From Mayamaea pseudoterrestris (Eukaryota), in assembly GCA_027923505.1 (NCBI GenBank), contig BROI01000026.1, positions 1 through 64,000 on the forward strand: a stretch of DNA of 64,000 nt. The letters are read 5' to 3'. A program made the translations under genes and the position numbers. Positions 1 to 61,726 of the stretch are shown here, piece by piece. The stretch's first letter is position 1. Each line of letters starts with the position of its first letter. A model generated the notes under the pieces. The model did not search any database, was not told the origin of the DNA, and saw only the letters and a list, made by a program, of their open reading frames with translations.

Positions 1-3000
1 GCTACAGGATCATCCACCTTGCCTGCTAAGCCATCCAATCTTTTTCCTATGATGTTGATTGACATATTGAGCCATAGCTATGGTGACTATCACCCCAATA
101 TTCACCAGCCTCGCTGCCATGGTGAGACTCAGCACATCCAATAACTTGTTGGATCTGCCAGCGGTGCACCTTGGCTGGTAAACAGACTGCCAGAATAACC
201 TGCAGACCCAAGAATATTGAAACCAAAGTACATATGATACAATTGGACCAATAGTCATCTCAATTGTGGGGTGGAACGCAGCATTGTGCCATGAGACTCC
301 GCACATTCAACAAGTTGTTGAATGTGCTAGCAGTGCACCATGCTTTGGCTACAGGATCATCCGCCTTGCCTGCTAAGCCATCCAACCCCTTCTTATGATG
401 TTGCTTGACATATTGAGCCATAGCTATGGTGACTATCACCCCAATATTCACCAGCCTGGCTGCCATGGTGAGACTCGGCACATCCAATAACTTGTTGGAT
501 CTGCCAGCAGTGCACCTCAACTGGTACACAGACTGCCAGAATAACCTGCAGACCCAAGAATATTGAAACCAAAGTACATATGATACAATTGGACCAATAG
601 TCATCTCAATTGTGGGGTGGAACGCAGCATTGTGCCATGAGACTCCGCACATTCAACAAGTTGTTGAATGTGCTAGCAGTGCACCATGCTTTGGCTACAG
701 GATCATCCGCCTTGCCTGCTAAGCCATCCAACCCCTTTCCTATGATGTTGGTTGACATATTGAGCCATAGCTAGGGTGACTATCACCCCAATATTCACCA
801 GCCTGGCTGCCATGGTGAGACTCGGCACATCCAATAACTTGTTGGATCTGCCAGCGGTGCACCTCGGCTGGTACACAGACTGCCAGAATGGCCTGCAGAC
901 CCAAGAATATCTAGCAGTGCACCATGCTTTGGCTACAGGATCATCCGCCTTGCCTGCTAAGCCATCCAACCCCTTCTTATGATGTTGCTTGACATATTGA
1001 GCCATAGCTATGGTGACTATCACCCCAATATTCACCAGCCTGGCTGCCATGGTGAGACTCGGCACATCCAATAACTTGTTGGATCTGCCAGCAGTGCACC
1101 TCAACTGGTACACAGACTGCCAGAATAACCTGCAGACCCAAGAATATTGAAACCAAAGTACATATGATACAATTGGACCAATAGTCATCTCAATTGTGGG
1201 GTGGAACGCAGCATTGTGCCATGAGACTCCGCACATTCAACAAGTTGTTGAATGTGCTAGCAGTGCACCATGCTTTGGCTACAGGATCATCCGCCTTGCC
1301 TGCTAAGCCATCCAACCCCTTTCCTATGATGTTGGTTGACATATTGAGCCATAGCTAGGGTGACTATCACCCCAATATTCACCAGCCTGGCTGCCATGGT
1401 GAGACTCGGCACATCCAATAACTTGTTGGATCTGCCAGCGGTGCACCTCGGCTGGTACACAGACTGCCAGAATGGCCTGCAGACCCAAGAATATTGAAAC
1501 CAAAGTACATATGATACAATTGGACCAATAGTCATCTCAATTGTGGGGTGGAACGCAGCATTGTGCCATGAGACTCCGCACATTCAACAAGTTGTTGAAT
1601 GTGCTAGCAGTGCACCATGCTTTGGCTACAGGATCATCCGCCTTGCCTGCTAAGCCATCCAACCCCTTTCCTATGATGTTGATTGACATTTTGAGCCATA
1701 GCTAGGGTGACTATCACCCCAATATTCACCAGCCTGGCTGCCATGGTGAGACTCGGCACATCCAATAACTTGTTGGATCTGCCAGCAGTGCCCTCGGCTG
1801 GTACACAGACCACCAGAATGGCCTGCAGACCCAAGAATATTGAAACCAAAGTACATATGATACAATTGGACCATTAGTCATTTCAATTGTGGGGTGGAAC
1901 GCAGCATTGTGCCATGAGACTCCGCACATTCAACAAGTTGTTGAATGTGCTAGCAGTGCACCATGCTTTGGCTACAGGATCATCCGCCTTGCCTGCTAAG
2001 CCAACCAGTCTGTTTCCTTTGATGTTGGTTGACATGTTGAGCCAATGCTGGGGTGACTTAACCAGCCTGGCTGCCATGGTGAGACTCGACACATCCAATA
2101 ACTTGTTGGATCTGCCAGTGGTGCACCTCAGCTGGTACACAGACTGCCAGAATGGCCTGCAGACCCAAGAATATTGAAACCAAAGTACATATGATACAAT
2201 TGGACCAATAGTCATCTCAATTGTGGGGTGGAACGCAGCATTGTGCCATGAGACTCCGCACATTCAACAAGTTGTTGAATGTGCTAGCAGTGCACCATGC
2301 TTTGGCTACAGGATCATCCGCTTTGCCTGCTAAGCCATCCAACCTCTTTCCTATGATGTTGCTTGACATTTTGAGCCATAGCTAGGGTGACTATCACCCC
2401 AATATTCACCAGCCTGGCTGCCATGGTGAGACTTGGCACATCCAATAACTTGTTGGATCTGCCAGCGGTGCACCTCAGCTGGTACACAGACTGCCAGAAT
2501 GGCCTGCAGACCCAAGAATATTGAAACCAAAGTACATATGATACAATTGGACCAATAGTCATCTCAATTGTGGGGTGGAACGCAGCATTGTGCCATGAGA
2601 CTCCGCACATTCAACAAGTTGTTGAATGTGCTAGCAGTGCACCATGCTTTGGCTACAGGATCATCCGCCTTGCCTGCTAAGCCATCCAACCCCTTTCCTA
2701 TGATGTTGGTTGAACCAGCCTGGCTGCCATGGTGAGACTCGACACATCCAATAACTTGTTGGATCTGCCAGTGGTGCACCTCAGCTGGTACACAGACTGC
2801 CAGAATGGCCTGCAGACCCAAGAATATTGAAACCAAAGTACATATGATACAATTGGACCAATAGTCATCTCAATTGTGGGGTGGAACGCAGCATTGTGCC
2901 ATGAGACTCCGCACATTCAACAAGTTGTTGAATGTGCTAGCAGTGCACCATGCTTTGGCTACAGGATCATCCGCTTTGCCTGCTAAGCCATCCAACCTCT

Positions 3001-6000
3001 TTCCTATGATGTTGCTTGACATTTTGAGCCATAGCTAGGGTGACTATCACCCCAATATTCACCAGCCTGGCTGCCATGGTGAGACTTGGCACATCCAATA
3101 ACTTGTTGGATCTGCCAGCGGTGCACCTCAGCTGGTACACAGACTGCCAGAATGGCCTGCAGACCCAAGAATATTGAAACCAAAGTACATATGATACAAT
3201 TGGACCAATAGTCATCTCAATTGTGGGGTGGAACGCAGCATTGTGCCATGAGACTCCGCACATTCAACAAGTTGTTGAATGTGCTAGCAGTGCACCATGC
3301 TTTGGCTACAGGATCATCCGCCTTGCCTGCTAAGCCATCCAACCCCTTTCCTATGATGTTGGTTGACATCTTGAGCCAATGCTGGGCTGACTATCACCCC
3401 AACATCCAAAAGCCTGGCTACCATGGTGAGACTCGGCACATTAAATAACTTGTTGGATCTGCCAGTAGTGCACCTCAACTGGTACACAGACCGCCAGAAT
3501 GGCCTGCAGACCCAAGAATATTGAAACCAAAGTACATATGATACAATTGGACCAATAGTCATCTCAATTGTGGGGTGGAACGCAGCATTGTGCCATGTGA
3601 CTCCGCACATTCAACAAGTTGTTGAATGTGCTAGCAGTGCATCATGCTTTGGCTACAGGATCATCCGCCTTGCCTGCTAAGCCATCCATCCCCTTTCCTT
3701 TGATGTTAATTGACATTTTGAGCCAATGCTGGGGTGACTATCACCCCAATATTCACCAGCCTGGCTGCCATGGTGAGACTCGGCTATTCCAATAATTTGT
3801 TGGATCTGCCAGTGGTGCACCTCGGCTGGTACACAGACGGCCAAAATGGCCTGCAGACCCAAGAATATTGAAACCAAAGTACATATGATACAATTGGACC
3901 AATAGTCATCTCAATTGTGGTGTGGAACGCAGCATTGTGCCATGAGACTCCGCACATTCAACAAGTTGTTGAATGTGCTAGCAGTGCACCATGCTTTGGC
4001 TACAGGATCATCCGCCTTGCCTGCTAAGCCATCCAACCCCTTTCCTATGATGTTGGTTGACATTTTGAGCCAATGCTGGGGTGACTATCACCCCAATATT
4101 CACCAGCCTGGCTGCCATGGTGAGACTCGGCACATCCAATAACTTGTTGGATCTGCCAGCGGTGCACCTCAGCTGGTACACAGACTGCCAGAATGGCCTG
4201 CAGACCCAAGAATATTGAAACCAAAGTACATATGATACAATTGGACCAATAGTCATCTCAATTGTGGTGTGGAACGCAGCATTGTGCCATGAGACTCCGC
4301 ACATTCAACAAGTTGTTGAATGTGCTAGCAGTGCACCATGCTTTGGCTACAGGATCATCCGCCTTGCCTGCTAAGCCATCCAACCCCTTTCCTATGATGT
4401 TGGTTGACATATTGAGCCATAGCTATGGTGACTATCACCCCAATATTCACCAGCCTGGCTGCCATGGTGAGACTCGGCACATCCAATAACTTGTTGGATC
4501 TGCCAGCGGTGCACCTCGGCTGGTACACAGACCGCCAGAATGGCCTGCAGACCCAAGAATATTGAAACCAAAGTACATATGATACAATTGGACCAATAGT
4601 CATCTCAATTGTGGGGTGGAACGCAGCATTGTGCCATGAGACTCCGCACATTCAACAAGTTGTTGAATGTGCTAGCAGTGCACCATGCTTTGGCTACAGG
4701 ATCATCCGCCTTGCCTGCTAAGCCATCGAGCCTGTTTCCTGTGATGTTAATTGACAATTTGAGCTAAGGCTAGGGTGACTATCACCCCAACATTTACCAG
4801 CCTGGCTGCCATGGTGAGACTCAGCACATCCAATAACTTGTTGACTGCCACACCCAAATCACCAAACCAAAGACAATGATACAATTGGACCAATAGCATG
4901 GTGACTATCACCCCAACAATTATATGGCTACAATACCGCCTTGCCTGCAAGCCTTCCTATGATGTTGTTTGACATATTGAGCCATAGCTAGGGTGACTAT
5001 CACCCCAATATTCACCAGCCTGGCTGCCATGGTGAGACTCGGCACATCCAATAACTTGTTGGATCTGCCAGCGGTGCACCTTGGCTGGTACACAGACTGC
5101 CAGAATGGCCTGCAGACCCAAGAATATTAAAACCAAAATACATATGATACAATTGGACCAATAGTCATCTCAATTGTGGGGTGGAACGCAGCATTGTGCC
5201 ATGAGACTCCGCACATTCAACAAGTTGTTGAATGTGCTAGCAGTGCATCATGCTTTGGCTACAGGATCATCCGCCTTGCCTGCTAAGCCATCCAGCCTGT
5301 TTCCTTTGATGTTAATTGACATTGGATCTGCCAGCGGTGCACCTTGGCTGGTACACAGACTGCCAGAATGGCCTGCAGACCCAAGAATATTAAAACCAAA
5401 ATACATATGATACAATTGGACCAATAGTCATCTCAATTGTGGGGTGGAACGCAGCATTGTGCCATGAGACTCCGCACATTCAACAAGTTGTTGAATGTGC
5501 TAGCAGTGCATCATGCTTTGGCTACAGGATCATCCGCCTTGCCTGCTAAGCCATCCAGCCTGTTTCCTTTGATGTTAATTGACATTTTGAGCCATAGCTA
5601 GGGTGACTATCACCCCAATATTCACCAGCCTGGCTGCCATGGTGAGACTCGGCACATCCAATAACTTGTTGGATCTGCCAGTGGTGCACCTAGGCTGGTA
5701 CACAGACCACCAGAATGGCCTGCAGACCCAAGAATATTGAAACCAAAGTACATATGATACAATTGGACCAATAGTCTTGTCAATTGTGGTGTGGAACGCA
5801 GCATTGTGCCATGTGACTCCGCACATTCAACAAGTTGTTGAATGTGCTAGCAGTGCATCATGCTTTGGCTACAGGATCATCCGCCTTGCCTGCAAAGCCA
5901 TCTAACCTGTTTCCTATGATGTTGGTTGACATTTTGAGCCAATGCTGGGGTGACTATCACCCCATTATCCACCAGCCTGTCTGCCATGGTGAGACTCGGC

Positions 6001-8860
6001 AGATCCAATAACTTGGTGGATCTGCCAGCAGTGCACCTCAGCTGGTATACAGACTGCCAGAATGGCCTGCAGACCCAAGAATATTGAAACCAAAGTACAT
6101 ATGATACAATTGGACCAATAGTCATCTCAATTGTGGTGTGGAACGCAGCATTGTGCCATGAGACTCCGCACATTCAACAAGTTGTTGAATGTGCTAGCAG
6201 TGCATCATGCTTTGGCTACAGGATCATCCGCCTTGCCTGCTAAGCCATCCAACCCCTTTCCTATGATGTTGGTTGACATTTTGAGCCAATGCTGGGGTGA
6301 CTATCACCCCAATATTCACCAGCCTGGCTGCCATGGTGAGACTCGGCACATCCAATAACTTGTTGGATCTGCCAGCAGTGCACCTCAGCTGGTACACAGA
6401 CTGCCAGAATGGCCTGCAGACCCAAGAATATTGTAACCAAAGTACATATGATACAATTGGACCAATAGTCATCTCAATTGTGGTGTGGAACGCAGCATTG
6501 TGCCATGAGACTCCGCACATTCAACAAGTTGTTGAATGTGCTAGCAGTGCACCATGCTTTGGCTACAGGATCATCCGCCTTGCCTGCTAAGCCATCCAGC
6601 CTGTTTCCTTTGATGTTGGTTGACATTTGGAGCCAAGGCAGGGGTGACTATCACCCCATAATCCACCAGCCTGGCTGCCATGGTGAGACTCGGCACATCC
6701 AATAACTTGTTGGATCTGCCAGCGGTGCACATCGGCTGGCACACAGACCACCAGAATGGCCTGCAGACCCAAGAATATTGAAACCAAAGTACATATGATA
6801 CAATTGGACCAATAGTCATGTCAATTCTGGTGTGGATCGCAGCATTGTGCCATGAGACTCCGCACATTCAACAAGTTGTTGAATGTGCTAGCAGTGCACC
6901 ATGCTTTGGCTACAGGATCATCCGCCTTGCCTGCTAAGCCATCCAACCCCTTTCCTATGATGTTGGTTGACATATTGAGCCATAGCTAGGGTGACTATCA
7001 CCCCAATATTCACCAGCCTGGCTGCCATGGTGAGACTCGGCACATCCAATAACTTGTTGGATCTGCCAGCGGTGCACCTCGGCTGGTACACAGACCGCCA
7101 GAATGGCCTGCAGACCCAAGAATATTGAAACCAAAGTACATATGATACAATTGGACCAATAGTCATGTCAATTGTGGTGTGGAACATTGCATTGTGCCAT
7201 GAGACTCCACACATTCAACAAGTTGTTGAATGTGCTAGCAGTGCATCATGCTTTGGCTACAGGATCATCCGCCTTGCCTGCTAAGCAATCCAGCCTGTTT
7301 CCTATGATGTTGGTTGACATATTGAGCCATAGCTAGGGTGACTATCACCCCAATATTCACCAGCCTGGCTGCCATGGTGAGACTCGGCACATCCAATAAC
7401 TTGTTGGATCTGCCAGCGGTGCACCTCGGCTGGTACACAGACTGCCAGAATGGCCTGCAGACCCAAGAATATTGAAACCAAAGTACATATGATACATTTG
7501 GACCAATAGTCATCTCAATTGTGGGGCGGAACATTGCATTGTGCCATGAGACTCCGCACATTCAACAAGTTGTTGAATGTGCTAGCAGTGCACCATGCTT
7601 TGGCTACAGGATCATCCGCCTTGCCTGCTAAGCCATCCAACCCCTTTCCTATGATGTTGGTTGACATATTGAGCCATAGCTAGGGTGACTATCACCCCAA
7701 TATTCACCAGCCTGGCTGCCATGGTGAGACTCGGCACATCCAATAACTTGTTGGATCTGCCAGCGGTGCACCTCAGCTGGTACACAGACTGCCAGAATGG
7801 CCTGCAGACCCAAGAATATTGAAACCAAAGTACATATGATACAATTGGACCAATAGTCATCTCAATTGTGGGGCGGAACATTGCATTGTGCCATGAGACT
7901 CCACATGTTCAACAAGTTGTTGAATGTGCTAGCAGTGCACCATGCTTTGGCTACAGGATCATCCGCCTTGCCTGCTAAGCCATCCAGCCTGTTTGCTTTG
8001 ATGTTGGTTGACATTTTGATCCAAAGTTGGGGTGACTATCACCCCAATATCCAAAAGCCTGTCTGCCATGGTGAGACTCAGCACATCCAATAACTTGTTG
8101 GATCTGCCAGCAGTGCACCTCAACTGGTACACAGACTGCCAGAATAACCTGCAGACCCAAGAATATTGAAACCAAAGTACATTTGATACAATTGGACCAA
8201 TAGTCATCTCAATTGTGGGGTGGAACATTGCCGACTCGCACATTCAACAATTGGATCACCATTGGAATGTGCTAGCTATGCACCATGCTTTGGCTACAGG
8301 ATCATCCGCCTTGCCTGCTAAGCCATCCAACCCCTTCTTATGATGTTGCTTGACATATTGAGCCAAAGTTGGGGGGACTATCAGACCAATATCCAAAAGC
8401 CTGTCTGCCATGGTGAGACTCGGCACATCCAATAACTTGTTGGATCTGCCAGTGGTGCACCTAGGCTGGTACACAGACCACCAGAATGGCCTGCAGACCC
8501 AAGAATATTGAAACCAAAATACATGATACAATTGGACCAATAGTCTTGTCAATTCTGGTGTGGAACGCAGCATTGTGCCATGAGACTCCGCACATTCAAC
8601 AAGTTGTTGAATGTGCTAGCAGTGCATCATGCTTTGGCTACAGGATCATCCGCCTTGCCTGCTAAGCAATCCAGCCTGTTTCCTTCGATGTTGGTTAACA
8701 TTTTGAGCCAATGCTGGGGTGACTATCACCCCAATAAAATCCAGCCTGGCTGCCATGGTGAGACTCGGCAGAACCAATAACTTGTTGGATCTGCCAGCGG
8801 TGCACCTCGGCTGGTATTTATACACAGACTGTCAGAATGGCCTGCAGTCCCAAAATATAA
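1..8860. repeat. Tandem satellite A, 347-bp unit (diverged dimer of ~173-bp halves), ~25-26 units, truncated by the window start
   Basis: GCTACAGGATCATCC recurs every 346-347 bp (1, 348, 694, ...). Several units have internal deletions or rearrangements (near 910, 2055, 2712, 4845-4960, 5320). The ORF track shows the same spurious peptide every 347 bp. Confidence 0.98.
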
Positions 8861-9289
8861 AAAACGTTATAGGCTGCAGTATATAATATAATATGTTGAT
8901 CATCTCACGCAAGCATTATTATTTTCCTTGCCGGCTGTCTTTCCTTTTAGAAACCGCTACGACATGTTAATCGCGCCAGCCGACGTTGGCTGACATCACT
9001 CAACCAAAACGCAACGACGGCTCGGGATGCAGGCTGCTCGACTCACTTTCGTTTCACTTTGATCAACCATATATCACAGAAACAGCAGCAGCAGCCAATA
9101 AAGCAAGAAGTGTCAACGTCTTGACCCTTGACGTGAGAATTGGCCTCGAATCGCGTAATTTTTCGCTTGTCAATCGGCCAGCGACTGCACACAAGGGCTT
9201 GGCTGTTTTCGCCTTGTCACGGACAACGACAAGCCGCACCTTGAAAGCTAATTTACTTGCAAAATTATAATCGTGACGATTGCCATAAC

Positions 9290-12200
9290 ATGAAAGTGTC
9301 TCTTGCTATACTGTTTACGCTGGTGACTGCCTCCTCGGTTGGTTTCAGCAGCAGCAGTCGTCGTCCACTTCAGCAACGACGGAACGACAACCAGAAACCA
9401 TTCTGGAATACACCAATCACAGACTCATCAATATCAGCAAGAATACCAAAGTCAGCATTATATATTGGCATGAGTTATCTTGAGACACTCAAGACGAATG
9501 AAGAAGGCGACAGCAATCAACGCTCCAGCAACAACGACCGCTACAAGGCGCCAAGCGTCGACGTTGGTTCCTCCAACGACTACTTGAGCGCACTGGCAGC
9601 TTCGCAAAAGAGTGCATCATCGTCCAAGCCAAAGACAGTTTCCTCCGGATCACCTGCTGGCGACTACCTTGGTGCCATGTCGTCGCCGAAGACGAATGGG
9701 AGCAATAACGATGGAGGCAGCGGCAGTGGCAGCAAGTTACAGCGCGTGCTTAGTTTCATTGGCAAGACGGGCATTGCGAGCACGGAATCAAATGAAACAC
9801 CAAAGTCGTCGCCTGCCGCGAGGGACGACTACTTTCGATCCATGTCGTCGTCGTCGCAGCAATCAACAACGGCAAGCGAGTCGTCGTCCAACGAGTCTGC
9901 TTCCGCCAACAAAAGGCAGCAGCAGCAACGATCCGATGACCCAGGCAAGTTTAAACGAGTGCTTGGCTATCTTGGCAACAAGATGAAGGCTGCCTATGAC
10001 TATTCCAGTGACGAAGAAGCCGGTGAAAAGGACATGAATGGACTATCGGCAACCTTTCCTTCGACTCGCTCGAGCAGGTCATCCGCGTTGGAACCAAGCA
10101 ACGACAAGACTGACTCGAATTCGCGGTTGTCCTCGTCGGTGCTAACATCACCTTCGACTGACTATGTCACTGCCATGTCGGGGGGATCTTCTTCGGCGGC
10201 AGGGTCCGAAGCAAAACCAGCGCCAGCCGCAGCATCCTACTCTGGCTTTCCCGGTGCGGCTTGGAGCCCTGGTGGAGGTGGTGGTGGCGGCGGCGGTAGC
10301 AATGATGCCAGCAATTCACACTCGTCAAAAAGCAGCGACAACAAGTCAACGGAACCAAAGGCATCATCGTCATACTCTGGCTTTCCTGGTGCGGCCTGGA
10401 GTCCTGGCGCATCAACAACCTCCAATTCAGTATCGTCATCGAGCAGCAGCAGCAAGTCAACTTCGTCAACGGCACCAAAAAAGTCGTCCTACTCTGGCTT
10501 TCCGGGTGCAGCCTGGAATCCTGGTGCAAGTGGCGGCGATGAAACTTCGAGTGAGCAAGCTTCGTCGGGTAGCCAAGGTTACGAGTCAACGTCGTCAGCA
10601 GCAAATGAACCAAAGAAGGCTTCCTACTCTGGCTTTCCAGGATCGGCGTGGAACCCAGGAAGTGGTGGAGATTCATCTGGCTCCAATGGCGTTAACAGCA
10701 ACGGTACGCCCTCCTCGTCGTCAACGAAAGAAGCGGAAAAGGCATCTTATTCTGGCTTTCCAGGATCGGCGTGGAGTCCTGGCGGCGGTGGTGATGCATC
10801 TCATTCTGGGACATCATCGTCCAAAAGTGATAGCAAATACGGTTTAACATTGTCACCGTCAACTGATTCGAAGAAAAATTCATATTCTGGGTTCCCCGGT
10901 GCGGCTTGGAGCCCCAATACCGCCGGTAATGTACCGAGTTCCGCGGACACGTACAAACCGCCAGTCGACCGCAGCAGCTACAATGCAGGGTCGTCCTCAG
11001 CAAGCCACCCGGCTAAGGCATCCTATTCGAAGCCAGGATCCGACTGGAGCCAGAACCAACCAAGCTCCTTTGCACCATCAATGGAGGACAGCCGCAGTAG
11101 CTACAGCTCTACAACCATGCCTTTAAACGATATAAAGCAAACAGCATCGTATTCTGGATTGCCTGGCTCGGATTGGGCGCCGGATGCATCGAACTCTGAG
11201 GCTTCAACAGTTGACAACAGCCGCAATAGCTATAGCACTGCACCCAAATCTACGTCGTCCTACTCTGGATTCCCCGGCTCGGCTTGGAGTCCAGGTTCCT
11301 CAACCTCGTCAACTCCTGCGGTAGACAACAGCCGCAGCGGCTACAGTGCTGAATCCACACAATCACGCGATATAAAAGACACATCATACTCTGGATTTCC
11401 TGGCTCGACTTGGAGCCCAGGTGATTTAGGCTCGTCGAGCACAACAGATCAAGTTTCGGCGAAAGGCAGTTACAATTCAGCAGCAAAGTCATCGGCCAAT
11501 CAATCAAAGTCAGCCTCTTATTCCGGATTTCCTGGCTCAACTTGGAGTCCTGGTAGCAGTTCATCTAGCTCAAATCAAGAATCAGTGCATGACGAAAGCA
11601 AGGAAAAGTTGTCACCGCCATCACAGGCGTCGTATTCGGGTTTTCCTGGCGCCGCTTGGAGTTTTGGCGGTACTATTAATGCAGGTAGTCAAGACGTGCC
11701 GAGCAACAAAATTGGTCAAGAAGGATCATCTACATACTCTGGATTCCCTGGATCTTCTTGGTCTCCTGCTCACGGCAACGGCAGTTCGGGTTCCACACAG
11801 CAATCTTCTGGATCAAAAAAAGCTGCACTGTCGCAACCATCGAAGCCGTCGTATTCTGGCTTTCCTGGGGCTGCTTGGAGTTCTGGGAATGCGTCAAATT
11901 CTAGGAATGACGGTCGCGAACGTCGGAACGATGTTGTTGATCAGTCTTCCGCTCGTATTCCATCGTGGGTTTCAAATGATCGCCAACCCCTGGAGAAAGA
12001 CAGAACAAATCAGAACTTATCAAGTCTTGATACGCAGGGACCGGTATGGAACGCATCTCCGAAAAGTGTACCAAGCCATGGCAAGTTGGCGCATTCTCTA
12101 AACGTTCCAGACACGAAACACTACTTTTCGGGTTTTCTTGAAGAATTATCTGGTGAAGACTCGTCAAGTGAATATGACCAACGAGAAAAGCTGCCATCTG

Positions 12201-13729
12201 CAGAGAAACAATCGTCATCAAATGTTGTTTCTAAAAATACCTCTTTTTCTGGATTCCTTGACGATCTGTCGTCCGATTCCAGGGCTTCGAAATCGCACAA
12301 TTCACGGAGCAGCCATACGAAGGAGAAAGTAGCTAGAGATTCACGGACAGCTTCGTCTGCTACTCAGCCAGAATCATACGTTAGCGGCAACACTTTCGCT
12401 ACAAATCCAGTTGCCACTCCTTCTCCATCTCCTTCGTCAAGCAACTGGTTTACACCGTCGGCAGATTCAGATCCTAACTTATCTATAGAAAGAAGCGTTG
12501 GCATGGCCCCTTTGGTCAGAACTCCTTTGGTCCGTGAAGATCCGTATGTTGACGAGCAACTTGAAACTGCGATTATCGCGCTTCAGCACGAAATTGAACG
12601 ACTTTCAGATCAGCTTGCAGCACAAGGTGACGATATACAATCTCTGTTAATTCTCGGACGTAGTATGCGAGAGCAAGATGAAGATTATCGAGAGCAGGAA
12701 AACATTCGGCAACAAGAGAGGTTTGATGGAATGCACCGAGAGCTTGAAGGTCTTACCGGGCGCCTGGCACTACTGGAAGAAATCCAGCTAGAGTCTGAGC
12801 GCATAAAAGAAAGTATTGAAAATGTTGTCGACGCAAGCGATACGAAGATGCTAAACATGAATATATATGATTCACCGTCACCCAATGACGTACTCTATTT
12901 GAATGTTGGTGGCATGCCACTCGATGTCTTGCGAGGGACGCTGACATTCTTCCCCGACTCAATGCTGGCTCAAGAGTTTAGTGGGGAATGGGACGAAAGA
13001 CTCGTAAAAGACCATGAAGGTCGATTCATGGTCAACGAAGACCCAGAACTATTTGCCGAACTTGTCAACTACTTGCGCGATCAAGGCCGACGAGCAGATG
13101 ATAGGTTTATTGACCCACCAGGATTTAAGAACATCAATCAGCAGCAACGATTTCACCGGCTAGTTGATTCCTATGAATTGACAAAACATATGTATCGTTT
13201 CTCCGTTTGCACTGTCAGAGAAGATCCCCTTCCCGTCTCTTATCCAATATCAAATGCTCTGCTCATACCTGTAACAAACGACGAGGCCGATTTAAAGGAT
13301 TTTGTCTTGCAGCGAGATGGCAAGCATGCACGTAACGTCGATTCATTTGAGGTCGAGCTGGGAAGGGATACGTGTGGAGCCGTTGGGTGGTCAATATATG
13401 ACACGGATCGATTTGATGGATTCTGCTTTGACAACGAAGATCGCGTCGTTTTGGCAATTCTCTACATCTATCGGACTGGTCTGCAAGAGTCAATCTCTTT
13501 CCGTTTGGGAGATGTTACCCAAAGCATACCTACGAACGCGATAATTCGCGACAATGAGCCTGTACGGATCCGATGCGCTAATCGAGGTACCGAGTGGTAT
13601 GTCAACGATGTCCTGGTAGCGACAACGCCAGCAGTTCATCGAGCCTTAAGTTACAAGGTTGATGCAGCACCGTACGTGTCTTGCACCAAAGGGTCGATCT
13701 GCTTTACAGATCTTACGCTGGTTGCCTAG
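9290..13729 (+). CDS. Signal-peptide-bearing (probably plastid-targeted) Ser/Gly-rich repeat protein with 14 SYSGFPGxxWSP-type repeats, a coiled coil and a KCTD-type BTB/POZ domain; ~1479 aa
   Basis: Uninterrupted ORF with ATG at 9290 giving the hydrophobic N-terminus MKVSLAILFTLVTASSVGF. Repeats lie at ~10235-11885. Heptad segment LETAIIALQHEIERLSDQL. BTB signature LNVGG...TLT..PDSMLA..FSG.W.....DHEGRFMVNEDPELF..LVNYLR. Confidence 0.88.
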   Translation: MKVSLAILFTLVTASSVGFSSSSRRPLQQRRNDNQKPFWNTPITDSSISARIPKSALYIGMSYLETLKTNEEGDSNQRSSNNDRYKAPSVDVGSSNDYLSALAASQKSASSSKPKTVSSGSPAGDYLGAMSSPKTNGSNNDGGSGSGSKLQRVLSFIGKTGIASTESNETPKSSPAARDDYFRSMSSSSQQSTTASESSSNESASANKRQQQQRSDDPGKFKRVLGYLGNKMKAAYDYSSDEEAGEKDMNGLSATFPSTRSSRSSALEPSNDKTDSNSRLSSSVLTSPSTDYVTAMSGGSSSAAGSEAKPAPAAASYSGFPGAAWSPGGGGGGGGGSNDASNSHSSKSSDNKSTEPKASSSYSGFPGAAWSPGASTTSNSVSSSSSSSKSTSSTAPKKSSYSGFPGAAWNPGASGGDETSSEQASSGSQGYESTSSAANEPKKASYSGFPGSAWNPGSGGDSSGSNGVNSNGTPSSSSTKEAEKASYSGFPGSAWSPGGGGDASHSGTSSSKSDSKYGLTLSPSTDSKKNSYSGFPGAAWSPNTAGNVPSSADTYKPPVDRSSYNAGSSSASHPAKASYSKPGSDWSQNQPSSFAPSMEDSRSSYSSTTMPLNDIKQTASYSGLPGSDWAPDASNSEASTVDNSRNSYSTAPKSTSSYSGFPGSAWSPGSSTSSTPAVDNSRSGYSAESTQSRDIKDTSYSGFPGSTWSPGDLGSSSTTDQVSAKGSYNSAAKSSANQSKSASYSGFPGSTWSPGSSSSSSNQESVHDESKEKLSPPSQASYSGFPGAAWSFGGTINAGSQDVPSNKIGQEGSSTYSGFPGSSWSPAHGNGSSGSTQQSSGSKKAALSQPSKPSYSGFPGAAWSSGNASNSRNDGRERRNDVVDQSSARIPSWVSNDRQPLEKDRTNQNLSSLDTQGPVWNASPKSVPSHGKLAHSLNVPDTKHYFSGFLEELSGEDSSSEYDQREKLPSAEKQSSSNVVSKNTSFSGFLDDLSSDSRASKSHNSRSSHTKEKVARDSRTASSATQPESYVSGNTFATNPVATPSPSPSSSNWFTPSADSDPNLSIERSVGMAPLVRTPLVREDPYVDEQLETAIIALQHEIERLSDQLAAQGDDIQSLLILGRSMREQDEDYREQENIRQQERFDGMHRELEGLTGRLALLEEIQLESERIKESIENVVDASDTKMLNMNIYDSPSPNDVLYLNVGGMPLDVLRGTLTFFPDSMLAQEFSGEWDERLVKDHEGRFMVNEDPELFAELVNYLRDQGRRADDRFIDPPGFKNINQQQRFHRLVDSYELTKHMYRFSVCTVREDPLPVSYPISNALLIPVTNDEADLKDFVLQRDGKHARNVDSFEVELGRDTCGAVGWSIYDTDRFDGFCFDNEDRVVLAILYIYRTGLQESISFRLGDVTQSIPTNAIIRDNEPVRIRCANRGTEWYVNDVLVATTPAVHRALSYKVDAAPYVSCTKGSICFTDLTLVA

Positions 13730-13788
13730 TCATTTCTTTGTTCAATGCTATGGGTATCAGTATGGCATAATGGCGACCATAATATACA

Positions 13789-14183
13789 CAGGGTGACCAC
13801 AATGTTATCAGGACACATTTTTATTTTGTTAATCTCTCAGAAGTACATTTTAGATACGCATGTGTAATGACCAACTCATAGTGCGTTCAATGGCAATCGA
13901 GAACCAAGGAAACCGGGCCGCTTACACAGTTGATAATTTACTCGTACAAAGGTAAAACAAATTCAAATTTTGGCAAGAACATGCTGTATTGCTCAATCTA
14001 TGTTGACGCTTTGACTCGCTTCATTACCCTTTTGTGGTGGCATCATCATGCCAAACGCGACGGACTTAAAAAATTTCCAAATGCCTAATTGGAGAAATCT
14101 GTTGCTGGCAAATGCTAAACAATTCTCCCAAAAGAACAACCGGCATTAAGAATTGTGAATGTGCCTGGTAAGAACTTTTCACC
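13789..14183. mobile_element. Possible degenerate MITE-like element abutting satellite B
   Basis: 13789-13819 CAGGGTGACCACAATGTTATCAGGACACATT is a loose inverted match to 14158-14183 AATGTGCCTGGTAAGAACTTTTCACC. CAGGGTG resembles Tc1/mariner-type ends. No clear TSD. Confidence 0.22.
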
Positions 14184-17100
14184 AAATCACACCAGAATGG
14201 TGCCACCATCAATATTCAGGCTGCGCCACAAGATGGTATGCTTGGCTGGTGTCTCAGAAGACTGCAATGTAACTGGTGACAACTTGTCACCAGTCTCAGC
14301 CCCCTGATGCCTTGACATTCAAACCCCCCTACAGCAAGCCATGTCTACACCCAAATCACACCAGAATGGTGCCAACAACATTATTTAGACTGCGCTACAA
14401 GATGGTATGCCTGGCTGGTGTCTCAGAAGACTGCAATGATATCGGTGACAACTTGTCACCAATCTCCGCCGCAGATGCCGTGACATTCAAACGCTCCTAC
14501 AGCAAGCCATGTATACACCCATATCATACCAGAATGGTGCCAACAACATTTTTTAGACTGCGCTACAAGATGGTATGCTTGGCTGGTGTCTCAGAAGACT
14601 GCAATGTGATTGGTGACAACTTGTCACCAGTCTCAGCTCGCAGATGCCGTGACATTCAAACGCCCCTACAGCAAGCCCTGTAGGTGCCCAAAATACACCT
14701 GAAATGTGGCAAATTCATTATTCAGGCTGCGCTACAAGATGGTAGGCTTGGCTGGTGTCTCAGGGGATGGCAATGTATCTGGTGACAACTTGTCACCAGT
14801 CTCAGCCCGCAGATGCCGTGACATTCAAACGCCCCTACAGCAAGCCCTGTAGGTGCCCAAAATACACCAGAATGGTGCCAACATCATTATTCAGGCTGCG
14901 CTACAAGATGAAATGCTTGGCTGGTGTCTCAGAAGACTGCAATGATATTGGTGACAACTTGTCACCAGTCTCAGCCCCCAGATGCCGTGACATTCAAACG
15001 CCCTTACAGCAAGCCATGTATACACCCAGATCACACCAGAATGGTGCCAACATCATTATTCAGGCTGCGCTGCAAGATGGTTGGATTGACTGGTGTCTCA
15101 GGGGATGGCAATGTATTTAGTGACAACTTGTCACCAGTCTCAGCCCGCAGATGCCGTGACATTCTAATGCCCCTACAGCAAGCCCTGTAGGTGCCCAAAA
15201 TACACCAGAAATGTGCCGACATCATTATTCAGGCTGCGCAACAAGATGGTAGACTTGGGTGGTGTCTCAGATGACTGCAATGATATTGGTGACAACTTGT
15301 CACCAGTCTCAGCCCCCTGATGCCGTGACATTCAAACGCCCCTACAGCAAGCCATGTCTACACCCAAATCACACCAGAATGGTGCCAACATCATTATATA
15401 GATTGCGCTACAAGATGGTATGCCTGGCTGGTTTCTCAGAAGACTGCAATGTGATTGGTGACAACTTGTCACCAGTCTCAGCTCGCAGATGCCATGACAT
15501 TCAAACGCCCCTACAGCAAGCCCTGTAGGTGCCCAAAATACACCAGAATGGTGCCAACATCATTATTCAGGCTGCGCTACAAGATGGTAGGCTTGGCTGG
15601 TGTCTCAGGGGATGGCAATGTATTTGGTGACAACTTGTCACCAGTCTCAGCCCGCAGATGCCATTACATTCAAACGCCCCTACAGCAAGCCCTGTAGGTG
15701 CCCAAATCACACCAGAATGGTGCCAACATCATTATTCAGGCTGCGCTACAAGATGAAATGCTTGGCTGGTGTCTCAGAAGACTGCAATGATATTGGTGAC
15801 AACTTGTCACCAGTCTCAGCCCCCAGATGCCGTGACATTCAAACGCCCCTACAGCAAGCCCTGTAGGTGCCCAAATCACACCAGAATGGTGCCAACATCA
15901 TTATTTTGACTGCGCTACAAGATGGTATGCCTGGCTGGTTTCTCAGAAGACTGCAATGTGATTGGTGACAACTTGTCACCAGTCTCAGCTCGCAGATGCC
16001 GTGACATTCAAACGCCCCTACAGCAAGCCCTGTAGGTGCCCAAAATACACCAGAATGGTGCCAACATCATTATTCAGGCTGCGTTACAAGATGGTTGGCT
16101 TGGCTGGTGTCTCAGGGGATGGCAATGTATTTGGTGACAACTTGTCACCAGTCTCAGCCCGCAGATGCCGTGACATTCAAACGCCCCTACAGCAAGCCCT
16201 GTAGGTGCCCAAAATACACCAGAAATGTGCCAACATCATTATACAGGCTGCGCTACAAGATGAAATGAATGGCTGGTGTCTCAGATGACTGCAATGATAT
16301 TTGTGACAACTTGTCACCAGTCTCAGCCCCCTGATGCCGTGACATTCAAACGCCCCTACAGCAAGCCATGTATACACCCAAATCACACCAGAATGGTGCC
16401 AACATCATTATTTAGACTGCGCTACAAGATGGTATGCCTGGCTGGTTTCTCAGAAGACTGCAATGTGATTGGTGACAACTTGTCACCAGTCTCAGCTCGC
16501 AGATGCCGTGACATTCAAACGCCCCTACAGCAAGCCCTGTAGGTGCCCAAAATACACCAGAAATGTGGCAAATTCATTATTCAGGCTGCGCTACAAGATG
16601 GTAGGCTTGGCTGGTGTCTCAGGGGATGGCAATGTATCTGGTGACAACTTGTCACCAGTCTCAGGCCGCAGATGCCGTGACATTCAAACGCCCCTACAGC
16701 AAGCCCTGTAGGTGCCCAAAATACACCAGAATGGTGCCAACATCATTATTCAGGCTGCGCTACAAGATGGTAGGCTTGGCTGGTGTCTCAGGGGATGGCA
16801 ATGTATTTGGTGACAACTTGTCACCAGTCTCAGCCCCCAGATGCCGTGACATTCACACGCCCTTACAGCAAGCCATGTATACACCCAGATCACACCAGAA
16901 TGGTGCCAACATCATTATTCAGGCTGCGCTACAAGTTGGTTGGATTGACTGGTGTCTCAGGGGATGGCAATGTATTTAGTGACAACTTGCCACCAGTCTC
17001 AGCCCGCAGATGCCGTGACATTCAAACGCCCCTACAGCAAGCCCTGTAGGTGCCCAAAATACACCAGAATGGTGCCAACATCATTATTCAGGCTGCGCTA

Positions 17101-20100
17101 CAAGATGGTAGGCTTGGCTGGTGTCTCAGGGGATGGCAATGTATTTGGTGACAACTTGTCACCAGTCTCAGCCCGCAGATGCCATGACATTCAAACGCCC
17201 CTACAGCAAGCCATGTATACACCCAAATCACACCAGAATGGTGCCAACATCATTATTCAGGCTGCGCTACAAGATGAAATGCTTGGCTGGTGTCTCAGAA
17301 GACTGCAATGATATTGGTGACAACTTGTCACCAGTCTCAGCCCCCAGATGCCGTGACATTCAAACGCCCCTACAGCAAGCCCTGTAGGTACCCAAATCAC
17401 ACCAGAATGGTGCCAACATCATTATTTAGACTGCGCTACAAGATGGTATGCCTGGCTGGTCTCTCAGAAGACTGCGATGTGATTGGTGACAACTTGTCAC
17501 CAGTCTCAGCTCGCAGATGCTGTGACATTCATATGCCCCTACAGCAAGCCCTGTAGGTGCCCAAAATAAGCCAGAATGGTGCCAGCATCATTATTCAGGC
17601 TGCGTTACAAGATGGTTGGCTTGGCTGGTGTCTCAGGGGATGGCAATGTATTTGGTGACAACTTGTCACCAGTCTCAGCTCGCAGATGCCGTGACATTCA
17701 AACGCCTCTACAGCAAGCTCTGTAGGTGCCCAAAATACACCAGCAATGTGGCAACATCATTATTCAGTATGCGCTACAAGATGGTAGGCTTGGCTGGTGT
17801 CTCAGGGGATGGCAATGTATTTGGTGACAACTTGTCACCAGTCTCAGCCCGCAGATGCCATGACGTTCAAACGCCACTACAGCGAGCCCTGTAGGTGCCC
17901 AAATTACACCAGAATGGTGCCAACATCATAATTCAGGCTGCGCTACAAGATTAAATGCTTGGCTGGTGTCTCAGAAGACTGCAATGTATTTGGTGACAAC
18001 TTGTCACCAGTCTCAGCCCGCAGATGCCATGACATTCAAACGCCCCTACAGCAAGCCCTGTAGGTGCCCAAAATACACCAGAATGGTGCCAACATCATTA
18101 TTCAGGAGGCGCTACAAGATGGTAGGCTTGGCTGGTGTCTCAGGGGATGGCAATGTATTTGGTGACAACTTGTCACCAGTCTCAGCCCGTAGATGCCATG
18201 AATTTCAAACACCCCTACAGCGAGCCCTGTAGGTGCCCAAATCATACCAGAATGGTGCCAATACCATTATATAGACTGCTCTACAAGATGGTATGCCTGG
18301 CTGGTGTCTCGGAAGAGTGCAATGTGATTGGTGACAACTTGTCACCAGTCTCAGCCCGCAGATGCCGTGACATTCAAACGCCCCTACAGCAAGCCCTGTA
18401 GGTGCCCAAAATACACCAGAAATGTGACAACATTATTATTCAGGCTTCGCTACAAGATGGTAGGCTTGGATGGTGTCTCAGGGGATGGCAATGTATTTGG
18501 TGACAACATGTCACCAGTCTCAGCTCGCAGATGCCGTGACATTCAAACGCCCCTACAGCAAGCCCTGTAGGTGCCCAAAATACACCAGAATGGTGCCAAC
18601 ATCATTATTCAGGCTGCGCTACAAGATGGTAGGCTTGGCTGGTGTCTCAGGGGATGGCAATGTATTTGGTGACAACTTGTCACCAGTCTCAGCCCGCAGA
18701 TGCCGTGACATTCAAATGCCCCTACAGCAAGCCCTGTAGGTGCCCAAAATACACCACAATGGTGCCAACATCATTATTCAGGCTGCGCTACAAGATGGAA
18801 GGCTTGGCTGGTGTCTCAGGGGATGGCAATGTATTTGGTGACAACTTGTCACCAGTCTCAGCCCGCAGATGCCATGACATTCAAACGCCCCTACAGCAAG
18901 CCCTGTAGGTGCCCAAATCACACCAGAATGGGGCCAACATCATTATTTAGACTGCGCTACAAGATGGTATGCCTGGCTGGTGTCTCGGAAGAGTGCAATG
19001 TGATTGGTGACAACTTGTCACCAGTCTCAGCCCGCAGATGCTGTGACATTCAAACGCCCCTACAGCAAGCCCTGTAGGTGCCCAAAATACACCAGAATGG
19101 TGCCAACATCATTATTCAGGCTGCGCTACAAGATGGTTGGCTTGGCTGGTGTCTCAGGGGATGGCAATGTATTTGGTGACAACTTGTCACCAGTCTCAGC
19201 TCGCAGATGCCGTGACATTCAAACGCCCCTACAGCAAGCCCTGTAGGTGCCCAAATCACACCAGAATGGTGCCAATACCATTATATAGACTGCTCTACAA
19301 GATGGTAGGCTTGGCTGGTGTCTCAGGGGATGGCAATGTATTTGGTGACAACTTGTCACCAGTCTCAGCCCGCAGATGCCGTGACATTCAAACGCCCCTA
19401 CAGCAAGCCCTGTAGGTGCCCAAAATACACCAGAATGGTGCCGACATCATTATTCAGGCTGCGCTACAATATGAAATGCTTGGCTGGTGTCTCAGAAGAC
19501 TGCAATGATATTGGTGACAACTTGTCACCAGTCTCAGCTCGCAGATGCTGTGACATTCATATGCCCCTACAGCAAGCCCTGTAGGTGCCCAAAATACACC
19601 AGAATGGTGCCAACATCATTATTCAGGCTGCGCTACAAGATGGTAGGCTTGGCTGGTGTCTCAGGGGATGGCAATGTATTTGGTGACAACTTGTCACCAG
19701 TCTCAGCCCGCAGATGCCGTGACATTCAAACGCCCCTACAGCAAGCCCTGTAGGTGCCCAAAATACACCAGAATGGTGCCAACATCATTATTCAGGCTGC
19801 GCTACAAGATGGAGCTTGGCTCAATGGCAATGTATTTGGTGACAACTTGTCACCAGTCTCAGCTCGCAGATGCCGTGACATTCAAACGCCCCTACAGCAA
19901 GCCCTGTAGGTGCCCAAAATACACCAGAATGGTGCCAGCATCATTATTCAGGCTGCGCTACAAGATGGTTGGCTTGGCTGGTGTCTCAGGGGATGGCAAT
20001 GTATTTGGTGACAACTTGTCACCAGTCTCAGCCCGCAGATGCCTTGACATTCAAACGCCCCTACAGCAAGCCCTGTAGGTGCCCAAAATACACCAGAATG

Positions 20101-23100: not shown

Positions 23101-23245
23101 GCCCCTACAGCAAGCCCTGTTTACACCCAAATCACACCAGAATGGTGCCAACATCATTTTTCAGGCTGCGCTGCAAGATGGTAGGCTTGGCTGGTGTCTC
23201 AGGGGATGGCAATGTATTTGGTGACAACTTGTCACTAGTCTCTCA
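14180..23245. repeat. Tandem satellite B, 169-bp monomer, ~53-54 copies
   Basis: TGGTGACAACTTGTCACCAGTCTCAG recurs every 169 bp. Alternative sub-variants: GGGGATGGCAATGTATT vs GAAGACTGCAATGATAT, and CCTGTAGGTGCCCAAAATA vs CATGTATACACCCAAATCA. Confidence 0.98.
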
Positions 23246-60297: not shown

Positions 60298-61726
60298 TTA
60301 CCACTGCTTGACAAAGCCATCGTCACCTCCAATCACTGGCTCGGTGGGCGAGTAGCCCGACGCTCCCACCACAAACGGTTCCACCCAAGCCGTCAATGGA
60401 AACTCCACCGTCGCACTGTTCACGACGCGCACAACGTTACCACTGCCAGGCGTCTCAATCACCAAGTAGCATGGTCGGTCCATGCCATCCTCCGTGTACA
60501 CTTCCATGACTTGCTTGTTGTTGTTAGGGCCTTGCAGCAACTCGATGCGAGCATTCAACGGACGACCATCCGTCGTGAGCAAAATCTGAACACTGTCGAC
60601 CGACGGATCAAACGGATACGTCTTGAGCGCTCCACCTTGAATCGTCTGCGGCGGTCCCTGGAGCGGATTGGATCGCGCCGATGGAACGTCCGACTCTTCA
60701 TCCGTCTCCGCCAGTACGTGCGCCGCGAGTGGAAACTCCAACTGGCCCGTGTTGCGAATCTGAATCGTGTTGGGGCTGCGAGGAGTCTCCATGACGGCCG
60801 TGAATGGACGAACGGCGCCATCTTCCACGTAGACGCGCATCTGAAAGTGAGGAAAAAGGAGTGAAGTAGAATGAGAATGCTGAATGAAAATGACCATGCG
60901 CGAGAGAGATGATGCAACCAAAGGTTCATGTGTTTTTGATCGTCACTCTCAACACTTTCATACGCAACTTCCCCAAACTGATCACTCATCGTACCTTGTG
61001 CGGCGTATTATCTGGTCCCTGCCAAAGACTAATATCGGCATCAAGTGGTCGTCCATCCGTTTTCAGGCAAACATGAATGCGCGTAATGGATGGACTCGCA
61101 AAGGACCATGTTTTGAGCGAGCCTCCCTGCACTAGTAGCTTGGGTGACTTTGTCGCAATCATGTTGGAGGGATTCTGTGGCTCGCGCGAGGAACTAACGT
61201 TAATGGCGTTGGAGCCGCGGTCACTGCCGCGACTGCTGCTGCCAGGCAACTGCTGGGTTTTGGGGCTACTGCCCATTTTGGCATTTTCCTGCTCGAGCTG
61301 GTTCAAGCGTTCCTCCAAGCGGCGCTGTGCAAAGGAAATTGTAGAAGTGATGAATAGGAGATGATTGTGAGAAGAGACGTCGAGTATAAGATGAAAGATT
61401 ACAATCAAGCATCGTATCGAAGAATAGATTCGCCAGTCATCCTCAAAAGCTGTCACATCACATTCTATATACAGTAATACACTCACAGTCCTATCTTCAT
61501 CCGCTCGTCTCGCAAAAAAGTCCTTTGGATTCTTTGGCTGCTGCTGGTCGTCACTGTTTTGCTGCGGCGTGTTTCCCAAATCTTCCCCTCCGAGGCTGGA
61601 CAAGTAGGACCGCAGCTGCTGGTGGCAGTGCTTGGTCGGCTGCTGCTGATGCGTAATCATGAATGCGCTTGCTGACGACGATGCCGTCAAAACGCACAAG
61701 AGGGAGAGTTTCGTAAACGTCTTCAT
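60298..61726 (-). CDS. PyShell-like pyrenoid shell protein, 370 aa; exons 61726-61487, 61324-60995 and 60840-60298
   Basis: Signal peptide with ASA-F cleavage motif. Two GT..AG introns keep the frame. Tandem duplicated domain VQGGSLKTWS..GRPLDADI.LWQGPDNTP.KMRVYVEDG..RPF..V.ETP..EFPL / IQGGALKTYPFD..GRPLNARIELLQGPNNNKQV.E.YTEDG..RP...IETPGSGNVVR.VN...EFPL. The family name is recalled, not searched. Confidence 0.78.

Follow-up and report, generated by a model that had tools for sequence, protein, structure and literature searches.

The first 64,000 nucleotides of contig BROI01000026.1 from the diatom Mayamaea pseudoterrestris (assembly GCA_027923505.1), here called the window, include on the forward strand at 9290..13729 a gene whose predicted product begins with a signal peptide, continues as a long Ser-rich chain with 14 aromatic repeats, and ends in a folded module that contains a BTB domain, raising the question as to where such a protein goes and what it holds together. 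An earlier interpretation made from the letters alone (the sequence-only reading) saw in it a candidate pyrenoid linker. We favor a broader reading, to which we assign a probability of roughly 0.4, namely that the protein is a multivalent, hub-oligomerized scaffold that enters the endoplasmic reticulum (ER) and probably passes on to the plastid; we infer its targeting, its oligomerization and the function of its repeats as stickers from the features set out here, and Rubisco in the pyrenoid is one candidate partner among several. The parts of the gene on which the argument turns are as follows.

9290..13729, + strand: open reading frame (ORF) of 1479 aa, free of internal stops.
9058..9289, + strand: probable 5′ untranslated region; contigs of two sequencing runs, X3 (9077-9813) and X4 (9058-9242), extend upstream of the ATG.
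9290..9343, + strand: predicted signal peptide, aa 1-18, with its hydrophobic h-region at aa 3-14 (hydropathy KD(12) 2.38).
9344..9469, + strand: aa 19-60, Phe19 with a Ser-rich, basic stretch resembling a transit peptide, assigned from composition and likeness to a PyShell presequence.
9470..10234, + strand: Ser-rich N-terminal region, with a [DS]Y[LFV]xx[LM] motif at five sites (aa 62, 97, 125, 180, 291) and a basic [KR]VL[SG][FY][IL]G[KN] motif at two (aa 152, 223).
10235..11890, + strand: 14-repeat region, aa 316-867, S-Y-S-G-F-P-G-x-x-W-[SN]-P-G with Ser/Gly-rich spacers.
11891..12541, + strand: Ser-rich connector, aa 868-1084, with two [FY]SGFL[ED][ED]LS motifs (aa 946, 986).
12542..12829, + strand: long helix, probably a coiled coil, aa 1085-1180; a single helix of ~96 aa (model residues 6-101) in the AlphaFold2 (AF2) model, with a predicted local distance difference test score (pLDDT) of 83-92 over the block.
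12881..13192, + strand: predicted KCTD/T1-type BTB domain, aa ~1198-1301, from a Pfam BTB_2 match and fold matches.
13193..13729, + strand: predicted C-terminal beta-sandwich, aa ~1302-1479, and the stop codon, from AF2 strands and VIA-align.

The N-terminus suggests the route. As the sequence-only reading had noticed, a signal peptide is followed by Phe: the h-region is the sole hydrophobic segment of the whole protein (KD(19) 1.68) and S-V-G precedes Phe19, in agreement with the rule that places small residues at -3 and -1 of a cleavage site. Diatom plastid presequences consist of a signal peptide, an ASAFAP-type site with F, W, Y or L at +1, and a basic hydroxylated stretch, and by inspection a bipartite pattern of this kind appears to be present here, with the h-region, S-V-G then F, and basic aa 1-60 (isoelectric point (pI) 11.47, net charge +6; the mature aa 20-1479 have a pI of 5.24). 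The window also provides controls. The product of a PyShell gene at 61726..60298 (- strand) has the N-terminal sequence ...T-A-S-S-S-A-S-A-F, compared with ...T-A-S-S-V-G-F here, and the order of signal peptide, small residues, Phe and basic Ser-rich stretch is common to the two presequences, whereas three Cys-rich proteins of the window (30661-, 43497+ and 42286-) have signal-peptide-like N-termini with no aromatic residue at that place. Because of the Phe at the predicted cleavage site, the basic Ser-rich stretch and the PyShell-like presequence, import into the plastid appears to be the likeliest route, with a chance of about one half.

Behind the presequence lies the repeat region. The pattern [YF]S(G[FL]/K)PGxxW matches 14 times, with successive Tyr residues (aa 317, 362, 401, 446, 487, 532, 579, 621, 658, 700, 744, 782, 816 and 855) 34-47 aa apart. 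The canonical YSGFPG is present in 12 of the 14 and the other two are degenerate (SYSKPGSDW at aa 579, SYSGLPGSDW at aa 621); W[SN]P is present in 10 repeats, with A-W-S-P-G as the core context. The sequence-only reading had counted 14 copies of SYSGFPG[AS]xW[SN]PG at intervals of about 40 aa, and although the number and spacing stand, the strict consensus fits only 8/14, and its shorter form SYSGFPG[AS]xW 11/14. Chance is a poor explanation of these counts: in 200 shuffles S[YF]..PG was found a mean of 0.04 times (maximum 1) compared with 13 observed, and W[SNK]P 0.29 times compared with 10.

Tandem Repeats Finder reported no tandem repeat in the gene, and at the DNA level the 42-nt motif has a mean identity of only 72%, with third positions at invariant residues 51% identical; its codons are free to vary at synonymous sites (four codons each for Gly and Pro, several for Ser). 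These two observations rule out a recent tandem duplication artefact. Because synonymous sites have diverged while the peptide stayed the same, the motif is evidently maintained at the protein level, and on this comparison the repeats are old as DNA and kept by selection on the peptide.

Further short motifs accompany the repeats. A second, Tyr-centered motif is found in several of the spacers (units 3 and 5-10), motifs of the [DSG][YF][LFV]xx[LM] type occur seven times in the whole protein, and the basic motif, in the form KRVLGxLGxK, has two copies. The repeat region has a net charge of 0 and a pI of 7.2; Lys makes up ~5% of aa 311-930, Ser 28% over ~600 residues, and Cys is absent from the first 1300 residues. 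In aa 311-880, S/G/P/Q/E/K/R account for 62% of residues and order-promoting ones for 13%, and the Ser/Gly-rich chain of ~1000 residues is probably disordered; the ESM Atlas gave no usable match for aa 1-930.

The C-terminal 400 residues are, by prediction, folded in three parts, where the sequence-only reading had already seen a coiled coil, a BTB domain of KCTD type and a beta-rich C-terminus. The AF2 model of aa 1080-1479, built from a 55-sequence alignment, has a mean pLDDT of 87.9. In the best heptad register of the long helix, L/I/V/M occupy 48% of a/d positions compared with 28% overall, and Pfam coiled-coil families score on it below their cut-offs only. For the BTB domain, Pfam BTB_2 (PF02214) matches aa 1203-1267 with 29.6 bits against a gathering cut-off of 21.4, pLDDT is 91-98 over most of the domain, and Foldseek aligns it with KCTD16 (TMt 0.78-0.79, 29-31% identity). 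VIA-align places a Plasmodium falciparum Kelch protein (chain residues 350-443) at Z 13.0, followed by KCTD16, 17, 7, 9 and 10 at Z 10.7-11.5 (root-mean-square deviation (rmsd) 2.3-3.0 over 92-101 residues, 23-32% identity).

By their Protein Data Bank (PDB) titles, the KCTD structures matched are oligomeric; that of the KCTD9 BTB is a pentamer and that of the KCTD16 BTB a hexamer. A complex prediction with four copies of the coiled coil and BTB domain, in which no alignment was used, gave 0.19, 0.57 and 0.23 in three runs, with a median of 0.23 compared with a mark of 0.32, a spread that speaks neither for nor against oligomers. A sticker-spacer region joined to a folded oligomerization hub is a fair deduction from anatomy. 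For the terminal sandwich, VIA-align gives nearly equal scores to PRY-SPRY domains (MID1 Z 10.8, rmsd 3.3, 139 aligned; TRIM67 10.5), a GH16 enzyme (10.8), a galectin (10.5) and a legume lectin (10.3); aa 1302-1479 match no Pfam family, SPRY included, at E<=1, and for aa 1300-1479 the ESM Atlas gives SPRY/Neuralized leads at 0.84-0.87 only, below 0.9. Because lectins and GH16 score as well as SPRY, the modeled domain is assigned to the ConA-like/SPRY superfold and to nothing narrower.

Both the unbroken ORF and contigs that reach from the one part into the other support a single gene for the repeat and BTB parts, as the sequence-only reading had assumed. A TGA closes the frame at 9242-9244; reading on from it, the first ATG is that at 9290, and no ATG was seen by eye within 9058-9289. 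Four public runs of one study (X1-X4), none of them recorded as RNA, cover the stretch and were compared over 3000-20000. X1 has coverage throughout, with summed depths of hundreds to ~80,000 on the satellite arrays that flank the gene and ~25 on the gene itself, whereas the depth of X2, X3 and X4 is zero throughout the bins of 3000-8669, and these three runs cover all bins of 8670-13772 and leave traces beyond; the highest summed depth of X1 lies on the satellites, where X2-X4 have next to none. Because depth in X2-X4 is confined to the gene stretch, their coverage is the pattern expected of transcript-derived contigs, and judging from coverage alone the gene is probably transcribed. The bridging contigs are 11772-12761 and 12723-13722 in X2 and 11822-12657 in X4, and among the joints listed none falls inside 9290-13729. 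The comparison lists 40 of 194 differences; among those listed, three indels (3, 6 and 3 nt) fall within the coding sequence (CDS) and five (1, 2, 1, 6 and 1 nt) outside it, and 13 of 27 differences in the CDS are synonymous. Indel lengths and synonymous differences point to coding constraint.

The relatives of the protein fall into several groups. Searched exhaustively by phmmer, aa 1080-1479 had 1271 protein matches at E<=1e-3, of which 289 reached E<=1e-10 and nine E<=1e-30. The best match, P0002 (391 aa), is 63% identical, comes from another organism, is encoded on a 2.3-kb contig, and is probably a fragment of an orthologue. The second, P0003 (45% identical), shares a 90% cluster with P0152, a 1557-aa protein of a second organism in which a Ser-rich region with aromatic motifs is likewise followed by a coiled coil and a BTB domain, where the protein ends. 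Its BTB domain is 62% identical to that of the query, and a motif at query aa 218-233 is identical at 14 of 16 positions. Because the same architecture recurs in P0152, the plan of Ser-rich motif region, coiled coil and BTB is, on this evidence, not an artefact of assembly or gene calling.

Domain-wise BLAST gives different nearest relatives for the two domains. The BTB domain of the query is 61-63% identical to those of P0152, P0003 and P0002 and 45-51% to those of a standalone family of ~330-aa proteins, whereas its sandwich is closest (36-40%, E 1e-25 to 1e-27) to Ser-rich repeat proteins that have the same sandwich subtype and no BTB domain (P0061, P0041, P0074 and P0075), and only 24-33% identical to the standalone family. 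On these alignments the query combines two modules that are also found separately. P0061 (GKZ01055.1, 1971 aa) is from Mayamaea pseudoterrestris itself; its terminal sandwich is 39% identical to that of the query (E 9e-27), its N-terminus has a signal-peptide-like segment followed by A-A-A-A-F, and it contains 23 YLxxL-type, 16 S[YF]..PG and eight W[SNK]P motifs. The query repeat thus looks like a variant of an S-[YF]-..-P-G-..-W-x-P motif that is also kept in P0061. P0074, a metagenomic protein of 1912 aa, has the sandwich in mid-protein followed by three K-K-S-Y-[AS]-P-..-G-Y-L-G-E-L-E repeats, and at its C-terminus an FAD-binding-like region with a faint match to FAD-dependent hydroxylases (E 0.0016).

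Searches for homologues of similar length were less productive. With aa 1080-1479 only the query was recovered, and low-complexity words saturated the candidate lists in two of the three near-length searches (aa 1080-1479, 1-900 and 30-250). The homology searches that the sequence-only reading had called for gave relatives of the BTB module and none of aa 1-900 among proteins of 813-2589 aa. Metagenome scans, by single protein and by alignment, gave no confirmed locus, and NCBIfam had no match for P0001.

A mechanism that would accommodate these features can be sketched. The protein would enter the ER through a cleavable signal peptide and then, most probably, the complex plastid; the coiled coil and BTB domain would assemble several chains into one particle, which would display several times 14 aromatic stickers; the stickers may associate with one another, engage a site that recurs on some abundant partner, or do both; and the beta-sandwich could dock the assembly on a further partner. 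The outcome would be a cross-linked network or a condensate scaffold.

Several observations nonetheless weigh against this scheme. The cleavage site was read by eye and the disorder of the chain was judged from composition only; a Ser content of 28% over 600 residues is common also in secreted, glycosylated wall proteins; and BTB, coiled-coil and SPRY-like domains are typically cytosolic. Most of the 150 C-terminal-module matches listed are ~330-aa proteins, and in the four such sequences examined the chain opens directly with a short helix, a signal peptide being absent. In P0152 the YSGFPG motif is not kept and the repeats are of different types (D-W-S-R-D, S-W-S-G-S and DYFSxxS), and the protein as predicted has no signal peptide, although its N-terminus may be incomplete. 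Lastly, searches with aa 1-900 and aa 30-250 among proteins of 813-2589 aa returned the query only, which is no proof of uniqueness.

Among described systems the obvious comparison is with PYCO1 (Phatr3_J49957) of Phaeodactylum tricornutum, a protein of 592 aa with six KWSPR and five GTGYNP motifs at uneven spacing (PMC10288592). In the sections of that paper drawn on here, the KWSPRGGS motif docks on the Rubisco small subunit as a tetrad, with the Trp essential and the following Ser touching the small subunit, GTGYNP is assigned to self-association, and a weak large-subunit helix contributes; the same sections report that KWSPR/Q was not found elsewhere in Phaeodactylum and PYCO1 homologues not in other algae (PMC10288592). 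No linker was found in Thalassiosira pseudonana, and the main text of that pyrenoid study mentions neither BTB nor KCTD (Nam et al. preprint). The Mayamaea protein resembles PYCO1 as a diatom nuclear gene product with a presequence that looks plastid-type and a long repeat region, prion-like in composition, containing Trp- and Tyr-centered motifs, and the sequence-only reading had likened its repeats to the PYCO1 sticker. The likeness extends to W-S-P and the Gly/Ser that follows and no further: there are 14 SYSGFPGxxWSPG and zero KWSP, flanking Lys/Arg are absent, and the repeat region is neutral and joined to a coiled coil, a BTB domain and a beta-sandwich, whereas the consulted sections on PYCO1 mention no folded hub. 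A phmmer search of the PDB with aa 301-907 matched no PYCO1 chain at E<=10, in a copy where the presence of the 7Y5K chain, PYCO1(452-592), is unconfirmed. The FLIPPer criteria for linkers specify repeats spaced 20-120 residues apart in largely disordered proteins with repeating helical elements (PMC11570498); the spacing of 34-47 aa falls within that range, whereas the motif is Gly/Pro-rich.

Other likenesses concern single modules. KCTD proteins (KCTD16, 9, 17 and 7) share the BTB_2 match and the BTB fold, and are to our knowledge cytosolic, small, and without a signal peptide or a 1000-residue repeat region. The ~330-aa diatom family, which includes the hypothetical Mayamaea pseudoterrestris proteins GKY91198.1, GKY90340.1 and GKY93385.1, has the same three-part C-terminus of coiled coil, BTB and sandwich, but only a short N-terminal helix in place of the signal peptide and Ser-rich repeats. 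P0061 and the metagenomic proteins P0041, P0074 and P0075 share Ser-rich repeats with [DS]YLxx[LM]S, and P0061 also S[YF]..PG..W.P, but they have neither coiled coil nor BTB domain, and their repeats are longer and basic (K-W-K-P). TRIM proteins likewise have a long helix and a SPRY-like sandwich (Z 10.2-10.8 to MID1, TRIM67, TRIM25, TRIM14 and TRIM10), but this likeness is at fold level only; the query lacks a RING or B-box and has its BTB domain between helix and sandwich. Silaffins and cingulins are recognized by a signal peptide and Lys-rich (KxxK), Ser-rich regions that alternate with Trp/Tyr-rich regions; the query has the signal peptide, the Ser-rich spacers and the aromatic motifs, with Lys at the low level given above.

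How far, then, can the partner be narrowed down? A pyrenoid matrix linker, in which the W-S-P-G repeats bind form ID Rubisco as KWSPRGGS of PYCO1 does and the BTB hub multiplies their valency, would account for the plastid-type presequence so like that of the PyShell gene, for the W-S-P core with its Gly/Ser, for a spacing inside the FLIPPer range, and for the second, Tyr-centered spacer motif, which recalls the two sticker types of PYCO1. The niche is also open, since PYCO1 is without homologues outside Phaeodactylum and no linker was found in T. pseudonana, so that other diatoms need other linkers; the two PyShell genes in the same 64-kb window, 36 and 47 kb distant, favor it weakly. We nonetheless consider such a linker quite unlikely. 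Known pyrenoid linkers are basic, whereas here the net charge of the repeat region is 0 and the pI of the mature protein is 5.2; KWSP and its flanking basic residues are missing, the PDB search gave no PYCO1 match, and no helical sticker is obvious in so Gly/Pro-rich a motif. Moreover, the relative P0152 is without the repeat, the C-terminal module is that of a large diatom family whose members, ~330 aa long, lack signal peptides, and neither BTB nor KCTD is mentioned in the main text on the Thalassiosira pyrenoid. About as doubtful is an extension in which the protein would typify a new class of diatom pyrenoid scaffold, with a disordered multivalent arm, a BTB/coiled-coil hub and a SPRY-like docking domain, and in which the motifs S[YF]..PG..W.P and [DS]YLxx[LM]S would be a red-lineage counterpart of the Chlamydomonas Rubisco-binding motif, serving as pyrenoid-targeting or as Rubisco- or PyShell-binding stickers. 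These motifs are common to the query and other proteins with a signal peptide followed by Phe, and the [DS]YLxx[LM]S type is also found behind the presequence of the PyShell protein at 61726 (-) and in a 900-aa ORF at 46252 (+).

If the protein does not reach the plastid, a structural role in the cell wall or frustule seems possible, if doubtful: an ordinary ER signal would lead to secretion, the Ser spacers would be glycosylated or phosphorylated, the aromatic Gly/Pro motifs would be elastomer-like or cross-linking, a lectin-type sandwich would hold polysaccharide, and the BTB domain and coiled coil would bundle the chains. The signal peptide is clear, Ser at 28% is accompanied by Gly and Pro, and the R-P-L at aa 25-27 is an R-x-L site of the kind at which propeptides of diatom silica proteins are cleaved; lectins, CBM66, GH16 and the Emp47 CRD fit the sandwich no worse than SPRY does, and S-[YF]-A-P-G-G-G motifs in a Mayamaea relative resemble what we take to be the resilin repeat. 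Yet Phe19, directly behind the signal peptide, and the basic stretch that follows fit plastid import, Lys makes up only ~5% of the repeat region whereas silaffins and cingulins are Lys-rich, the first 1300 residues have no Cys, and we know of no secreted protein with a BTB or coiled-coil hub. It is rather unlikely that the protein stays at the membrane as a cytosolic adaptor, held by an uncleaved reverse signal-anchor on the ER or chloroplast-ER and working in the manner of the ~330-aa paralogues, whether as a substrate adaptor of the Cullin-3 type, as an oligomeric scaffold or otherwise. The anchor is suggested because positive charges, four Arg, lie on the C-terminal side of the hydrophobic segment; the module is common to a large family without signal peptides, the BTB fold matches include Cullin-3-bound KCTD7, and the sandwich matches TRIM PRY-SPRY domains, with coiled coil plus SPRY resembling the C-terminal halves of TRIM proteins. 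However, the hydrophobic core is only ~12 residues long and its KD(19) of 1.68 is marginal for a transmembrane segment, small residues provide a cleavage site, and the sandwich groups with the BTB-less repeat proteins (36-40%) and not with the standalone family (24-33%). Finally, the position of the gene in a 5.3-kb unique island between 347-bp and 169-bp satellites invites the thought of a decaying or non-functional ORF stranded there, but this is very improbable given a stop-free frame of 4.4 kb, in-frame indels only (among those listed), a surplus of synonymous differences, coverage limited to the gene in the contigs of the three small runs X2-X4, and a 63% identical relative in another organism.

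The choice among these matters because PYCO1 is the sole known diatom Rubisco linker, and the building of the pyrenoid matrix in most diatoms is still to be explained. If the preferred reading is true, a plastid sticker-spacer protein with an oligomerization hub would be a design unlike EPYC1, CsLinker, PYCO1 and SUPA1, as these are described. The sequence-only reading had recognized no such architecture among described linkers, and the literature searched bears this out: no described counterpart was found there, nor any match to the YL-type motif strings, nor, judging by title, anything relevant on diatom BTB repeat proteins with signal peptides. If the protein is not of the pyrenoid, it would belong to an undescribed modular diatom family that combines Ser-rich motif arrays and a SPRY-like domain with or without BTB, and a BTB domain behind a signal peptide would be unusual.

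The window contains further genes of related interest. The PyShell gene at 49314-50156 (+) matches PF25192 at 3e-78; read from its first ATG, the ORF encodes no signal peptide, so that a 5′ exon has probably been missed here. The second PyShell gene, 61726-60298 (-), is divided between two ORFs that match PF25192 at 6.6e-19 and 3.6e-64 and cover profile positions 3-55 and 53-209, and the gene therefore contains an intron or a frame change; its signal peptide ends in A-S-A-F, and an S-Y-L-S-S-L motif lies 18 residues later. The 900-aa ORF at 46252-48954 (+), on the same strand as the PyShell gene at 49314 and 360 bp upstream of it, has a signal peptide and then Phe, two YLxxL-type motifs, six basic F-[KRT]-V-[GN]-x-R-x-R repeats ~40-50 aa apart, and a pI of 6.4; it has no Pfam match, and may be a separate plastid repeat protein or the 5′ exon of the PyShell gene. 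The ORFs at 30661-29504 (-), 43497-44645 (+) and 42286-40931 (-) encode three paralogous acidic Cys-rich proteins with no Pfam match, which all begin with a signal-peptide-like segment, contain an R-R-[LV] site and are hydrophobic at their C-terminal ends.

The unique island of 5.3 kb that contains the gene is flanked by two satellite arrays, which are listed here.

1-8858: satellite array with a unit of ~347 bp, ~25 copies, 77-95% matches.
14184-23242: satellite array with a unit of 169 bp, 53.7 copies, 89% matches.

Overlapping and antisense ORFs within the gene (10164+, 10167-, 11589+ and others) were set aside, as a matter of judgement only, as apparent by-products of the Ser/Gly codon repeats. 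Elsewhere in the window, the ORF at 57626-56859 (-) encodes a DUF4149 protein (1.7e-11) whose signal peptide ends in A-S-A-Y, and which is likely directed to the plastid.

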